This document shows positions 21,862-28,015 of a stretch of 28,015 nt of DNA, in pieces; positions within the stretch are counted from its first letter, which is position 1, and every line of letters begins with the position of its first letter. Under the pieces are notes generated by a model. That model was given only the letters and a program-made list of their open reading frames with translations, had not been told where the DNA came from and made no database searches. This DNA is from Candidatus Hydrogenedentota bacterium. Lineage in GTDB: Bacteria; Hydrogenedentota; Hydrogenedentia; Hydrogenedentales; SLHB01. The stretch spans positions 1 through 28,015 of the forward strand of contig JAWXCN010000097.1 in NCBI GenBank assembly GCA_034408725.1, written 5' to 3'. The translations under genes and the position numbers were made by a program.

Positions 21862-22299
21862 ATGATCGACCTGTATATCGTCCTCTTCATTGGCATCGCC
21901 CTGTTCGCGTTCCACAGCCGGAAATCGAACAGGATTGCCGCGTCTTCTCCCCGTCGCAAGACCATCATCCAAGTGCTTTGGGGTGCGGCGTTCATCCTCG
22001 CACTGATGATAGGCGTTCGGTTTTCCGGCGGAGCAGGCGTCATGAAGATCGTAATTGCGCTACCGATTGCAATCGCAGTGTTCGCACTCGTCTATTTCCT
22101 CATTCGGGAATTTAGCGTGATTCGTGAAAGGGTTATCTTACTGGTAGTGCGGATACTCGGAGTTCGAAACATTGAAAGATATGGATTGGTCCTGCTGGCC
22201 ATTTTAATTGTGTTGGGAACTACCTTGGCCATTACCTCGCGCATGACAATTGATGACACAGCAAATTCGGCGACACGTTCCGCTCCGTCAACGCCGTGA
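21862..22299 (+). CDS. Hypothetical membrane protein (about 4 TM)
   Basis: Four hydrophobic segments; GAAGG before ATG 21862 (alternative start 21832). Confidence 0.65.
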   Translation: MIDLYIVLFIGIALFAFHSRKSNRIAASSPRRKTIIQVLWGAAFILALMIGVRFSGGAGVMKIVIALPIAIAVFALVYFLIREFSVIRERVILLVVRILGVRNIERYGLVLLAILIVLGTTLAITSRMTIDDTANSATRSAPSTP

Positions 22300-22633
22300 A
22301 TTTTCTCCAAAACGCAGGCTTGGGACAGCCCCACCGCGTTCGCATACTGCCGCGAACGCTATTGGGACAGTCCCCTTTCCCGATTCGGCTGAATTGGGTG
22401 TAAGCGCAGTTAGTCTGCACCGATTTTTCGAAGCGAATGACAAGGCGTAGCGCTTCATTCACAGCTTTGTCACTCGGAAACGCAGTCGCTACGTCCGGCG
22501 CCAACAACACCAGGTTGCTACCTTCCTTATAACGCTTCGCAAACTTGCCCTGAGTACCTTCGTTCAGCAGTGCAGCAAGATTATATTCAGGCCGTAACGC
22601 GTCAGCCTTTGCGCTTTTTGATCTCGTTTTCAT
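22232..22633 (-). CDS. BrnA-like antitoxin with an abnormal C-terminal extension
   Basis: LRPEY..GKFAKRY.EG.NLVLL.PDVA.AFP...AVNEALR; start overlaps the brnT-like end; reads on through REP copy 1. Confidence 0.75.
   Translation of the reverse strand: MKTRSKSAKADALRPEYNLAALLNEGTQGKFAKRYKEGSNLVLLAPDVATAFPSDKAVNEALRLVIRFEKSVQTNCAYTQFSRIGKGDCPNSVRGSMRTRWGCPKPAFWRKFTALTERNVSPNLLCHQLSCAR
22321..22377 (+). repeat. REP-like element family A, copy 1
   Basis: TGGGACAGCCCC...TGGGACAGTCCCC; 53/57 nt identical to 23564-23620. Confidence 0.8.
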
Positions 22634-22770
22634 ATGCTCTCCGTTCCGCCCGTGTCATCTTTCGCGCGCTGATAATTCTGATTCTATCGCCGCGATCAGT
22701 GTATGCAATGATCAACAACTGACTGCGCGCCGATGTGCCAACCAATATATACCGGTCTTCGTTCACCGAG
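22602..22770 (-). pseudogene. brnT: BrnT (DUF497) toxin, C-terminal half only
   Basis: EDRYILVG.S....LLIIAYTDRGDRIRIISARKMT.AERRAYE; the N-terminal FEWD..K...N..KH part is absent. Confidence 0.8.
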
Positions 22771-22789
22771 CTGTCGACGCTACACGTAT

Positions 22790-22860
22790 TGCTGATCGCA
22801 ACGACAGAATCAGAATTATCAGCGCGCGGAAATTGACGTATATAGAATCGAGAGGATTTC
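22790..22860 (+). pseudogene. Inverted second brnT 3' fragment
   Basis: The plus strand encodes ADRNDRIRIISARKLTYIESRGF; 40/46 nt inverted match to 22654-22699. Confidence 0.75.
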
Positions 22861-22861
22861 C

Positions 22862-22909
22862 GTTGTGGCCGGTCTCCCGACCGCGCCACGCCGCCGACCG
22901 GAGGTCTCC
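22862..22909 (+). repeat. REP-like element family B, copy 1
   Basis: GTTGTGGCCGGTCTCCCGACCGCGCCAC..CCGACCG.GAGGTCTCC; inverted copies at 23532 and 23696. Confidence 0.8.
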
Positions 22910-24651: not shown

Positions 24652-24761
24652 TTTAGATTCTCCTTAGCCTCATCCTGCCCAGTCCCGATCTTGAGGCATA
24701 TTAGCCACTTATTGTAAATTGCAATTTCTTGGGGTCACACCGCGAATTGGGGGAATCACGC

Positions 24762-26783
24762 ATGGAATCGTTTACCGAAAAAGCCATACTTGAGGGCCAT
24801 CTTCGGATCGATAAATCGGGTAAAGCGGATAGAGTTGTGTACGTCGCAGGCAATCGCACAGAACGATGGACAGACCCCGAGGAAAAAGTACGCGCCGAAT
24901 TTTACGCCGAACTGATCTACCGCTACGGATACGATCCCGAACGGATCGGCGTCGAAATCACGGTTCCCGATCGCACACCCAAGGATGCCGCGGATATCAT
25001 TGTCTTTCGCGATGCCGAGCGTAAACGGCCGTATGCTGTAATCGAGTGCAAGCGTGAAGGGATAAGCGATGCGGAATTCAACCAATCTGTAGAGCAAGCG
25101 TGGGGCAATGGTAACGCGCATAAGTTTCGAGCTGCATACGTTGGCGTAGTTGCCGGTGGAACGCGCCGATTTCTCGACTGCTCAGACAAATTCGGCGCAC
25201 TCGAACGCGACAAGAATCAGATCGCGGATTTGCCGTTGACCTATGGAAACCCACCCGAATACAAGTACCGCAAGGGCGTTAGTAACAACTGGCAAGATAT
25301 TAAGCCCGTTAACAAGGGAGAACTGATTGCCGCCATCAAAAAATGTCACCAAACGCTTTGGGGCGGGGGGCGCCTTTCGCCACCAGCCGCCTTTGGTGAA
25401 TTCTGCAAAATCATATTCGTAAAGGTCCGGGACGAAAAAGCGCCGCGAAAGAAAGGCGATCCCTATGAATTCCAGATCAAGACCGACGAGCCTTCCCCAG
25501 TCTTGGCCAAGCGCATCAAAGACATGTACGCGAAGGAAATGCAGAGCGAGCCCGACGTGTTTACCGAACCGATCAAGATCGACGATGGAACGCTCAAGAT
25601 GTGCGTCGCTCACCTTGAAGGAATCAATTTCAACAAAACCGATCTCGATACTAAGGGCGTAGCGTTCGAGCAGTTTCTCGATGGTTTCTTCAAGGGCGAC
25701 TTTGGCCAATACTTCACACCTCGCGAAATAATCCAGTTCTGTGTCGAGATGATGAAGCCGACCAAAGACGATTTCGTGCTCGATCCAGCATGCGGCTCTG
25801 GTGGATTTTTGCTCTACGCGATGGACTACCTCCGCCACGAAGCTGAGAATATGTTTGATGATGAAGAATCGGACGCTCGTTTTCGCCATTGGCACGATTT
25901 CGCAAAGGAAAAACTCTTCGGCCTCGAAATAAACGACGAGATAAGTCGCGTCGCCAAGATGAACATGATCCTCCACGACGACGGACATACCCACATCTAC
26001 GGAAACGACGCACTCGACCGATTATCACGGATTGGCGAGCGCAACCGCCGCTTTCAGACGGGTATGTTTGATTTGATTCTAACGAATCCTCCTTTCGGTG
26101 CTGTGATTAAAGAGACCGAGAAGGGTAGCGGATACATGGAAGGATGGGAACTCCTGCGGTACATCGGCAAAGGCGAACAGTCCGATGGCAGCGCCGGAGA
26201 AATGGTCAGTGACTTTAAGGCGGGTAAAAAGAGCATCAAGGCACGAAAGAGCATCAAAACTGAGATTCTATTCTGCGAGCGCGTCTGGCATTTCCTCAAG
26301 CCGGGCACGGGGCGAGCCGCCATCGTACTTCCCGACGGAATCCTGACCAACTCATCATTGCGGGGAGTGCGCGACTGGCTCTTGCTGCGATTCCAACTCT
26401 TGGCCGTGGTCAGCCTGCCGCAAGAAGCGTTTCAGCACGCGGGCGCGGGGGTCAAGGCGAGCGTCGTATTTTTCCGCAAGCGGGCCGAGGATGAGCAGCC
26501 CGACGACGATGAAGCGATCTTCATGGCCGCCCCGGCGAACATCGGCTACGACGCCACGGGCCGCAAGACCGCCCGCGTGAGCGTGAAGAGCGAGAACGGG
26601 CGCAAGAAGGTCGAGATTCACGCGACGGACCTGTTCGACGTCGAAGTGTTATTCGAGAAGGCGGCCAAAGCGGGCACGGGCGAGGAGGAATGGCAGGAGA
26701 AGACCCGCCGGGTGGTAGCGGGTACGGGCGTGCTGGGTCAGTACCGGGCCTTTGAGAAGACGCCCGAATCTTTTTTCGTCTAA
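24762..26783 (+). CDS. Fused restriction endonuclease (HsdR_N-like) and N6-adenine methyltransferase; type IIB/type I-like RM subunit
   Basis: PEEKVR..ADIIVF..VIECK nuclease; GQYFTPR, DPACGSGGFL (motif I), NPPF (motif IV), IVLPDGIL; GGGGG before ATG 24762. Confidence 0.93.
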   Translation: MESFTEKAILEGHLRIDKSGKADRVVYVAGNRTERWTDPEEKVRAEFYAELIYRYGYDPERIGVEITVPDRTPKDAADIIVFRDAERKRPYAVIECKREGISDAEFNQSVEQAWGNGNAHKFRAAYVGVVAGGTRRFLDCSDKFGALERDKNQIADLPLTYGNPPEYKYRKGVSNNWQDIKPVNKGELIAAIKKCHQTLWGGGRLSPPAAFGEFCKIIFVKVRDEKAPRKKGDPYEFQIKTDEPSPVLAKRIKDMYAKEMQSEPDVFTEPIKIDDGTLKMCVAHLEGINFNKTDLDTKGVAFEQFLDGFFKGDFGQYFTPREIIQFCVEMMKPTKDDFVLDPACGSGGFLLYAMDYLRHEAENMFDDEESDARFRHWHDFAKEKLFGLEINDEISRVAKMNMILHDDGHTHIYGNDALDRLSRIGERNRRFQTGMFDLILTNPPFGAVIKETEKGSGYMEGWELLRYIGKGEQSDGSAGEMVSDFKAGKKSIKARKSIKTEILFCERVWHFLKPGTGRAAIVLPDGILTNSSLRGVRDWLLLRFQLLAVVSLPQEAFQHAGAGVKASVVFFRKRAEDEQPDDDEAIFMAAPANIGYDATGRKTARVSVKSENGRKKVEIHATDLFDVEVLFEKAAKAGTGEEEWQEKTRRVVAGTGVLGQYRAFEKTPESFFV

Positions 26784-26812
26784 GCCCCGGCGAACGGGCC
26801 GCACGCTGCGGC
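26771..26812 (+). other. Candidate -1 programmed ribosomal frameshift signal
   Basis: T_TTT_TTC (26771-26777) in the RM frame, 6-nt spacer containing the TAA, then hairpins GCCC/GGGC (26784-26799) and GCCGCA/TGCGGC (26798-26812). Confidence 0.6.
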
Positions 26813-28015
26813 TCCTTTGCTGTTCGACGGGGCGACGTAAACAAACGCGCGAGCGTGGCATGGGGCCTGTTCTGCCTCGAATACCTTCCGCTCTTGCATG
26901 CGGTAAAGTCGCGAGGCCTTTCGGTTGTACCGTTGGGGGCACTTCTGCGCGAACCCTTAATGAACGGCGCATCCAAGAAGCCAGAGAATGCTGGACGCGG
27001 CACGCGGCTCGTAAACGTATTCGATTTGTACGCCGATACCGCAATCGATTTGAATCGCGTGGATCGACTTGAACTTCCTCCACAAGACGTAGAAAAATAC
27101 CGCGCAACTGCCGGAGATGTTTTCTTCACCCGCTCCTCTTTAAAGCCAGAGGGCGTCGCTTGGAGTGCCTACTTAGATGACGACGCCGAGGGCGACGCCG
27201 TATTCGAGTGCCACATCATTCGCGCTCGGGTCGATCGTGACCGAGCGATCCCCGGCTTCGTTTCCAACTACGCCCGAACGAGGATCGGCCGTGCCTATTT
27301 GATCGCACGAGCGGGCGTAACTACGATGGCGACGATCGACCAACAGGGAATCAGCGACCTTCCCGTTATTCTCCCCAAGCCTCCAAAGCAGCGGGAGTTG
27401 CTCGCCGCCCTCGACGCCGCCCGCGCGGCGCGGCGGCGGAAATTAGTAGAGGCCGAATCCCTCCTCGGTGGCCTCGACGCCTTCGTTCTCGAAGTACTGG
27501 GCCTCACCCTGCAACCGCCCGATGGCCACCGCACGACTTACGCGGTTCGCCTCGCCGACGTACGCGAAGGCAAGAAACTCTACCCGGACTACTTCCACCC
27601 CGAACGCTTGAACGCGATCCGCGCCATCGCCGCCGAGTTCGCCCGACTACTCATTGCCTCTCGCCAAGGTCGCAGACTTCCGCCGCGAACAGCGACAGGT
27701 CCAGCCTAACGATCCCTACCTCGGCCTCGCCAACGTCCAGCCCAATACCGGCGTCCGCATCCACAGCACCGAAGAGGACGGCGAGGGCACCGTGTTCGAG
27801 TACGCCGAGAACGATGTTCTCTTCGCCCGTCTCCGCCCGTACTTGAACAAGGTCTACCGGGCTGAGAGCGGCGGCGTCTGCTCCCCCGAGTTCCACGTCA
27901 TGCGCGTGCGCAACAGTAACGACGGCAAGCCGCTTGCGATCCCCGATTACCTCGCCGCCGTCCTCCGCTCCAGCGTCGTGATTGCCCAGACCCGCCACAT
28001 GATGACGGGTAACAC
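26780..28015 (+). CDS. hsdS: Restriction-modification specificity (S) subunit with two TRDs; interrupted by a frame change at about 27641; runs off the window
   Basis: TRD1 GDVFFTRS..FECHIIRAR..TI....I.DLP..LP....Q; spacer helix; TRD2 in the +1 frame YLGLANVQPNTG..NDVLFARLRPYLNKV..GVCSPEFHV. Confidence 0.85.

Follow-up and report, generated by a model that had tools for sequence, protein, structure and literature searches.

This study points to a programmed -1 ribosomal frameshift, for which we consider the case strong, at the 3' end of a restriction-modification (RM) gene in a type IIB-like system, resembling BcgI and BsaXI, of a Candidatus Hydrogenedentota bacterium. The gene lies at the right end of the window, by which we mean the whole stretch of DNA that was analysed: contig JAWXCN010000097.1, taken at its full length of 28,015 bp, from the metagenome-assembled genome GCA_034408725.1 (280 contigs, 5.17 Mb). 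The shift would join the RM subunit to the specificity (S) subunit, which is encoded immediately afterwards in the -1 frame. That recoding of some kind takes place at the run of T residues close to the end of the RM gene is held with still greater confidence. The signals at this junction, their conservation, the constant phase, the covariation and the distribution were observed directly; that the ribosome does the shifting, and how efficiently, we infer from them.

In the mechanism that we propose, most ribosomes would read TTT TTC GTC and stop at TAA, releasing a free RM chain. In a fraction of cases, the two tRNA-Phe on UUU UUC would slip back by one base onto U UUU UU while a hairpin 6 nucleotides (nt) downstream resists unwinding. 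Decoding would then resume at CGU CUA AGC CCC, giving ...FF-RLSP..., and would pass by way of a short linker to the S frame; the linker codons before the conserved CFAV motif would double as the hairpin. The shifted product would be a single RM-linker-S chain, of about 1150 amino acids (aa) in intact loci. Because S has no initiation site of its own, it would be made only as a fusion, in fixed proportion to RM. We infer that the purpose of the arrangement is to supply RM plus RM-S, from one start, for an enzyme of 2 RM : 1 S. If this is true, an (RM)(RM-S) assembly would reach that composition without a separate S product.

Slippery site, S frame and hairpin at the junction

The RM gene ends TCT TTT TTC GTC TAA. 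Its six T residues (T6, 26771-26776) and the C that follows form a heptamer, T_TTT_TTC, which conforms to the pattern X_XXY_YYZ and lies in phase with the RM frame. A previous sequence-only reading of this DNA had described the heptamer, a weak Shine-Dalgarno (SD)-like GAGAAG upstream, a 6-nt spacer, a GC-rich hairpin, the -1 frame and the absence of an S start, and each of these was found where that reading had placed it (Table 1). T_TTT_TTC falls in the class H_HH.U_UU.Y, whose heptamers are among the most efficient in E. coli according to Sharma et al. 2014 (PMC4066793).

Junction counts were made on 64 unique loci, which were chosen by a pattern that demands the heptamer together with a G, one codon and a stop, and they describe this set; an unselected listing of RM relatives agrees with it on the RM ends. 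Sixty-one of the loci have the heptamer TTTTTTC and three have TTTTTTT. The codon before TTT is CCT (55 loci), TCT (4), GAT (3), AGT (1) or CTT (1), ending in T in 64/64 cases irrespective of the amino acid. Elsewhere in the same RM genes, TTT accounts for 41% of Phe codons, CCT for 18% of Pro codons and T for 21% of third positions, so that the fixation of xxT TTT is at the nucleotide level, a conclusion which, in loci that are related, is given without a formal probability. The RM stop (TAA 42, TGA 16, TAG 6) stands one codon 3' of the heptamer.

The combination also exceeds what chance would give. The pattern TTTTTTC-NNN-TRR-GCCCC-N12-42-GGGGC matches the bacterium's own 5.17-Mb genome once, at this site, and gave no control match. 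Among 135 genomes of the phylum it was found twice, again with no control match, at this site and at one carrying TGG, which is not a stop. The sequence-only reading had also named a run of 7 T, that is, a simple in-frame fusion, as an outcome that would overturn it. In Logan contigs of four sequencing runs, which are of low depth and possibly stem from the assembly's own sampling campaign, T6 is identical, with no differences or gaps.

The predicted trans-frame junction reads ...TPESFF|RLSPGERAARCGSFAVRRGDV.... The S frame is open from the TGA at 26753, and its first ATG, GTG or TTG is the GTG at 26855, located 3' of the conserved motif. The start-less stretch between them reads ...FFRLSPGERAARCGSFAVRRGDV... 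and includes FAVRRGDV, while the second half of S opens with YAVRLADV; this parallel, from which the sequence-only reading had argued that the stretch is probably translated, was seen by us as well. Throughout the 64 loci, the -1 frame encodes FFR[LIMV][ST]P, then 5-20 variable residues, then CFAV[RK]RG[DE]I..R[LIF]D. In 27 of the 64, no ATG, GTG or TTG occurs between the upstream S-frame stop and the FAV motif, which bears out the missing start, and in several loci that stop is only 2-5 codons 5' of the heptamer. The first start past the FAV motif lies 36-324 nt downstream, at no fixed place and within the first target recognition domain (TRD1). The -1 frame is a long conserved open reading frame (ORF) with no initiation site of its own. 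Where S frames end within the contig, 45 of 50 are intact, with lengths of 435-738 aa; the five shorter ones are those of the window (312 aa) and of loci L028 (224), L043 (242), L034 (363) and L072 (38). To judge from these sequences, the S frame is under selection.

With regard to the hairpin, its outer stem pairs GCCCCG (26784-26789) with CGGGGC (26828-26833) around an inner helix with an apical hairpin at about 26796-26814. The minimum free energy (MFE) in the window is -30.8 kcal/mol over 50 nt, with z = -3.65 against dinucleotide shuffles. Across 61 loci, the hairpins have a median MFE of -26.2 kcal/mol, a median length of 47 nt and a median z of -3.67, with 89% below -2, against a median z of 0.01 and 4% below -2 in 414 control windows of the same length from the same loci. 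Single-sequence folds place the stem 6 nt 3' of the heptamer in nearly every locus. The inner helix is present throughout and differs between clades.

The comparative evidence comes from an alignment of the stem in 61 of 63 distinct cores, L015 and L034 (the latter with a 30-nt insertion) being left out. RNAalifold returned exactly the same six pairs from these 61 sequences. In the alignment, 99.2% of stem cells pair, whereas sliding the partner by 1-3 columns reduces this to 40-58%; 19 cells are changed on both sides, a number reached by none of 500 shuffles. Pair 1 is G-C in 40 sequences and C-G in 17, and pair 5 is C-G in 53, U-G in 5 and U-A in 2. Two of the six pairs accordingly carry compensatory changes, as would be looked for in the structure of a -1 frameshift site, and the 3' hairpin that the sequence-only reading expected to be conserved is indeed so. 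Constraint on the protein cannot explain the coupling at pair 1, because its 5' base is position 2 of a Ser/Thr codon and its 3' base position 3 of a Gly codon, about 45 nt apart. To avoid searching for the stem, we also ran a protein-anchored test, in which the 3' arm was set by the Gly codon of the conserved RG motif; L015, which has no RG motif, was omitted. Pairs 1-6 then form in 61, 63, 63, 63, 62 and 62 of 63 loci. In a FastTree phylogeny of the RM proteins (60 rows; L027 was dropped, its RM frame being open for only 40 codons), the sequences with C-G at pair 1 fall into two separate clades, both with local support of 100%, which points to at least two independent changes. At pair 5, U-A is confined to one clade, and U-G intermediates occur in at least three.

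Locus L034 (3474-3570) has a variant stimulator: its 30-nt linker insertion adds a further strong hairpin (-47.8 kcal/mol across 85 nt) immediately 3' of the spacer, and the FAV motif comes later. No Rfam family matched the hairpin; the best scores, 13.5 bits for Guanidine-III and 13.3 bits for PyrR204, compare with gathering scores of 36 and 71. The inner hairpin (26796-26814) was also considered as a transcription terminator, and this reading was rejected: the scan gave 4 sites against 4.9 expected in shuffles, the apparent T tail is conserved CFAV coding sequence, and the hairpin sits inside the outer stem.

Table 1. Positions of the RM-S junction elements in the window and loci of the portal-MuF cassette
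Feature	Position	Strand	Basis
RM gene	24729..26783	+	ORF list, Pfam, alignment A1, PDB match
SD-like GAGAAG, weak, candidate 5' stimulator	26754-26759	+	sequence; 11 nt 5' of heptamer
Slippery heptamer T_TTT_TTC	26771-26777	+	sequence, RM-frame phase TCT TTT TTC
6-nt spacer GTC TAA	26778-26783	+	sequence; last sense codon and stop of RM
Stimulatory hairpin (predicted)	26784-26833	+	folds, RNAalifold, covariation
S (specificity) frame	26771..27709	+	translations, motif conservation; -1 relative to RM, entered at heptamer
2-nt deletion in S relative to L004 (GAGTTCG--CCCGAC)	27641/27642	+	DNA alignment with L004 and L003
Remainder of S, TRD2 ...PDYSLPLAKVADFRREQRQVQPNDPYLGLANVQPN...	27642..28015	+	RM frame, cut by contig end; collinear with intact S of L004 and L003
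Portal-MuF cassette loci	L100-L104, L107-L109, L112, L114, L116-L195		IMG/VR contigs

The RM subunit, its relatives and the copy in the window

The RM ORF extends over 684 aa from a TTG at 24729 and ends ...TPESFFV before the TAA. The public gene call starts at the ATG at 24762 and yields 673 aa; protein P0001, also of 673 aa, is 100% identical. Pfam finds HSDR_N_2 (residues 50-119, E 2.3e-11) and N6_Mtase (E 6.5e-36), which correspond to an N-terminal PD-(D/E)xK nuclease followed by a gamma-type N6-adenine DNA methyltransferase. Residues D89, E106 and K108 of the PD-ExK pattern, as well as DPACGSGGF and NPPF, are invariant in alignment A1, which comprises this RM and eight relatives. The best relative of solved structure in the PDB is RM.BsaXI (8w0p, E 3.6e-27). 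Given the two domains, the invariant motifs and this match, RM subunit is a fair name for the protein, and nuclease and N6-adenine methyltransferase share one chain as in type IIB-like systems. As for S, Methylase_S was found by Pfam in three of four intact homologous S frames tested (456-495 aa), and S subunits were matched in the PDB. The window's own S pieces, split by a deletion and cut by the contig end, gave no Pfam match.

Relatives were collected from metagenomes with an alignment of nine RM proteins and with two internal peptides as search patterns, a procedure blind to the junction; the loci described are the best 80 of at least 524 relatives, at 48-79% identity. Of these 80, 61 carry the cassette, in which T6[CT] is followed by a single codon and a stop and S lies in -1; in one of the 61, S is unreadable at a contig end. 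The -1 phase anticipated by the sequence-only reading recurs in every cassette locus with a readable S. Among the other 19, one RM runs off its contig, two end differently near a contig end, seven are prolonged in frame by 226-263 aa of S-like sequence, and the nine most distant (48-53% identity) have a downstream gene with an ordinary start. Those of the nine downstream genes that encode S have proteins beginning MECFAV...IEGRIDP or MECFTT...IEGRLDP. Starting as they do at M-E-CFAV, they place the true N-terminus of the S protein at CFAV and show the preceding stretch to be a linker.

A scan with the RM protein, one genome per species, gave six loci, five of which have the cassette (55-82% identity); these five are in Planctomycetota and Phycisphaerae bins and in a complete Latescibacterota chromosome (55% identity). 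In the large protein collection, the 120 closest proteins (70-100% identity, 606-748 aa) include 115 whose C-terminus is FF plus one residue, and the residues flanking FF vary. On the conserved terminal Phe-Phe heptamer, too, the sequence-only reading is supported. Within the phylum, 10 of 135 genomes hold an RM match, that of the window included, and at least two of the others carry the cassette, one at 55-64% identity and one at 32%. At the 32% locus, the hairpin is formed before the FAV codons and not around them.

Naturally fused homologues, which the sequence-only reading had suggested looking for, exist in several forms. The sixth genome locus, L007 (35% identity), encodes RM in frame with a half-S of a single TRD, in 918 aa. 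Similar in-frame half-S fusions of about 820-920 aa include, besides L007, L066, L076, L077, L079, L080, L082, L086 and P0123-P0126, and there are others. In L076, L077 and L079 a further gene follows the half-S fusion with an ATGA overlap. Longer representatives, of 1000-1190 aa, also join RM and S in frame, for example P0127 ..APFAFAVKRGEIEG, in which RM continues directly into FAFAVKRGEIEG. In P0137 ..IPFFRNSLQIFGIGRSQIEGRLD, which belongs to a cluster of three and whose junction is known from the protein alone, PFFR equals the predicted trans-frame junction in one frame. Since S begins at M-E-CFAV in other relatives, and since the in-frame joins of P0127 and P0137 exist, an RM-S chain is viable. 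The family thus appears to have three layouts: split with a start, fused in frame, and fused by frameshift. The window and the 64 loci, in which a stop separates RM from S and the two occupy different frames, are not single-chain RMS genes; continuity is confined to more distant relatives. In two loci, L004 (RM frame open only from 4544) and L027, RM is apparently interrupted despite a full-length tblastn match; these are possibly decayed copies or assembly errors.

The S gene of the window differs from its relatives by the 2-nt deletion listed in Table 1. Owing to this deletion, S stops early, at the TAA at 27707-27709, and its remainder lies in another frame. The shortened frame takes in TRD1 and the central conserved region and reaches into the beginning of TRD2. 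The site of the deletion is identical and without gaps in contigs of the four runs, all of which cover it. On this prediction, the window would yield RM joined to no more of S than TRD1 and the central conserved region, although the cassette itself is intact, and the natural RM-half-S fusions resemble this layout.

Two other features of the window may be mentioned. A second HSDR_N_2 nuclease-type domain (E 8.7e-06, just above the cut-off) is encoded by a 270-aa ORF at 1295-2107 on the forward strand, on the same contig and distant from the RM locus. Upstream of RM, two small overlapping ORFs of 133 and 95 aa (22232-22889, reverse strand) resemble, by eye, a toxin-antitoxin pair; the ORF at 22232-22630, the only one of the two that was searched, had no Pfam match.

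Points against a ribosomal frameshift and competing explanations

Several observations weigh against the proposed frameshift. The trans-frame protein is known as a prediction from sequence comparison, and no RNA run was found to contain the locus. A fold of 100 nt of the window region alone gives z = -1.6, which is unconvincing in itself, and the case therefore rests on comparison. In that comparison, three of the six stem pairs are invariant and uninformative on structure, and the compensatory events are limited to about three or four lineages. The pairing energy with the anti-SD sequence has its minimum at -17..-13 from the heptamer in 61 loci (mean -3.53 kcal/mol, against a background of -0.87 +/- 1.14 kcal/mol at offsets -120..-6), but this peak, 9-12 nt upstream, is confounded with the coding of conserved charged residues, [QE][KR][DEK]; such an upstream stimulator is optional in bacteria. 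Some in-frame ATG, GTG or TTG precedes the FAV motif in 37 of the 64 loci, and in nine, mostly from a clade that includes human-gut contigs, a start overlaps the RM stop (ATGA 6, GTGA 3). Slippage of RNA polymerase on 6-7 T would give an identical protein (FFR...). The copy in the window may be inactive or altered in specificity, its S being broken by the deletion. Finally, no cultured member came to light: the 24 plasmid records stay under 60% identity, with none listed that exceeds 43.3%, cultured phages reach 32% at most, and E. coli genomes gave only a 131-nt match to the S gene.

S could be made separately, through termination and reinitiation near the RM stop or through internal initiation, with the heptamer and hairpin serving, for instance, as a coupling pause. 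We regard this as improbable. The nine loci with an overlapping NTGA are its natural setting, and coupled reinitiation could therefore contribute there; more distant relatives start S ordinarily, a few bases past the RM stop, and gene callers put S starts at downstream GTG, ATG or TTG codons. However, the 27 loci without a canonical start before the N-terminal motif offer no such codon, and in about half of the loci the codon overlapping the stop is CTA (spacers GTCTAA in 30 and GTCTAG in 3), which is not a known bacterial start codon. Internal initiation beyond the motif, at places that vary from locus to locus, would remove part of TRD1. Reinitiation would, moreover, leave unexplained both the fixed xxT TTT TTY at synonymous sites and the constant -1 phase. 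An ordinary overlapping start, the outcome by which the sequence-only reading would have been contradicted, is not the rule, being restricted to nine of the 64 loci, and the heptamer and stem are kept there.

The clade with the overlap deserves a separate remark. In L058, L060, L065, L067, L068, L072, L075, L085 and their neighbours, the spacer is often GCATGA or GYGTGA, and the heptamer and stem are retained in this clade. Frameshifting and coupled reinitiation may coexist in these human-gut-containing lineages.

Slippage of RNA polymerase on T6 or T7, adding one U and producing in-frame RM-S transcripts, is a second competing explanation, which we judge equally improbable. Transcriptional slippage is known for some bacterial and insertion sequence (IS) genes, the junction does offer a homopolymer run, and three of the 64 loci have T7. 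Known polymerase slippage sites are mostly runs of 8-9 or more, however, and the C that limits the run to six is kept in 61 of the 64 loci although T would be synonymous. The stem, exactly 6 nt downstream and with compensatory changes, has the geometry of ribosomal -1 frameshifting, whereas a downstream stem is not known to be required for polymerase slippage.

It is very unlikely that nothing is programmed here and that the locus is a decayed, mis-assembled or phase-variable in-frame RM-S fusion: the frame-breaking deletion in the window's S, the 280-contig metagenome bin and the in-frame fusions among relatives would suit this view, but the split arrangement is common to 64 unique loci, which come from many studies, a T run of a length that would fuse the frames occurs in none of the 80 metagenome loci, 45 of the 50 S frames that are complete are intact, and contigs of four runs agree on T6. 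A homopolymer switch was also considered specifically as a candidate and rejected. T6 is short for slipped-strand phase variation, the loci with 6 T (61) and with 7 T (3) have the same frame arrangement, and contigs of the four runs show no difference in T-run length.

Known systems, a second gene family and implications

A programmed -1 ribosomal frameshift at the RM-S junction would resemble established cases to different degrees. The three-part signal of dnaX of E. coli (tau/gamma) combines an X_XXY_YYZ heptamer with an SD-like element that precedes it by about 10 nt and a stem-loop that follows it after about 6 nt. The RM-S junction repeats this geometry in its heptamer and stem, with an SD-like element that is only suggestive, and from a single initiation site it likewise would give two products at a set ratio, both belonging to one complex. 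It differs in that the heptamer is T_TTT_TTC rather than A_AAA_AAG and that the 0-frame stop is inside the spacer. Moreover, the shifted product of dnaX is short, whereas that of RM-S would be long and would fuse two different subunits.

In orfA-orfB of the IS3 family and in lambda G/GT, ribosomes that shift by -1 close to the end of the upstream ORF fuse it to a start-less downstream ORF, so that short and long products are made in a fixed ratio. RM-S is likewise a predicted -1 fusion to an ORF without an independent start. The genes are those of a defence enzyme, in contrast to transposase and tail-chaperone genes, and the stimulator at RM-S is a simple extended hairpin on a conserved GCCCCG/CGGGGC base. 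General rules of such -1 fusions are given in PMC4066793.

Among restriction enzymes, BcgI and BsaXI are the nearest. They share with the present system an RM chain that combines an N-terminal PD-ExK nuclease with an N6-adenine methylase, and a separate S gene which, in the homologous loci, is directly downstream and appears to have two Methylase_S-type halves. The similarity is distant, and the present system is known from genes alone. BsaXI assembles as (RM)2S, and type IIB enzymes occur either as RM+S or as single-chain RMS, as stated in PMC11997821; the stoichiometry reported there would fit a need for more RM than S. In BsaXI, S is encoded by its own reading frame, and the words 'frameshift', 'overlap' and 'start codon' are absent from that paper. 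The single-chain enzymes form its 'RMS fusion group'. Like them, the predicted shifted product has the order R-M-linker-TRD1-CR1-TRD2-CR2, where CR denotes a conserved region. The RMS fusion group presumably corresponds to the AloI type. The difference is that the RM-S fusion would need a change of frame and that free RM would also be made, whereas a single-chain gene provides RM and S at 1:1 only.

No report linking ribosomal frameshifting with RM and S genes was found in open-access papers and preprints, supplementary lists being outside the scope of the search, which agrees with the sequence-only reading's statement that it knew of no such description. In the portions available, the GeneTack survey (PMC3711429), whose supplementary gene-cluster list could hold an example, the 2016 recoding review (PMC5009743) and a 2025 frameshifting preprint (10.1101/2025.10.02.679949) contain no relevant mention of restriction systems. 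One apparent hit, 'hsdS' in PMC4066793, was discarded as a strain genotype; the supplementary cluster list of that paper could still include such a cluster. On the sequence evidence, frameshifting between RM and S would represent a known mechanism in a class of genes where it was not known before.

The cassette is not restricted to restriction genes. A degenerate version of the pattern matched 16 IMG/VR contigs, of which two are RM-S members, four contain short frames only, and ten carry the cassette at the point where a Mu-type portal gene meets a start-less -1 frame. Pfam identified Portal_Mu (E 1e-62 to 1e-77) and Phage_Mu_F in the four of these ten contigs that were searched. A search with one portal protein then gave 80 loci at 62-100% identity (Table 1). 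Each of the 42 unique portal junctions shows T6C followed by one codon that varies and a stop, with the MuF frame in -1. In a second de-duplication, 42 of 43 unique junctions contain the full complement to the 6-nt 5' arm, and the arms covary (GCCCCG/CGGGGC 27, GCCCCA/TGGGGC 14, GCCCGG/CCGGGC 1). The predicted trans-frame peptide, FFR.SP, is the same as in RM-S. Distant cultured relatives have a portal-MuF gene in one frame (a Porphyromonas phage) or separate genes (a Flavobacterium phage), and portal-MuF fusions are noted for Microbacterium phages in PMC7302621. Some MuF frames end in toxin-like domains (Gln_amidase, CdiA_C). Portal-MuF is probably a second, unrelated family of -1 frameshift fusions. 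It provides independent support for the cassette as a working recoding signal. If this is correct, portal and portal-MuF would be made by the module in Mu-type phages of gut and environmental bacteria.

A broader proposal, which we advance tentatively and with doubt slightly outweighing conviction, is that a compact portable module sets unequal product ratios in both a large, cross-phylum type IIB-like RM clade and Mu-type phages, and that the two belong to a new and numerous class of -1 frameshifts. The module would consist of U_UUU_UUC, one codon, a stop, and a hairpin based on GCCCC(G/A) exactly 6 nt downstream. Such a class would have escaped notice because the starts that gene callers assign to S and MuF are arbitrary internal ones.

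Few chromosomal bacterial genes are known to use -1 frameshifting, namely dnaX and a handful of others. If the proposed mechanism is true, it adds a family of at least dozens of distinct members, found in Planctomycetota, Latescibacterota and human-gut contigs, and the S genes of this clade are currently annotated with wrong, truncated starts. The presence of the cassette in two gene families points to a reusable signal that can be searched for systematically and that could serve as a compact part for setting ratios. For the restriction enzymes themselves, expression by recoding would be a new mode of expression; it suggests how type IIB enzymes of the RM+S form may obtain their 2:1 subunit ratio, and it would account for the occurrence of both split and single-chain forms.

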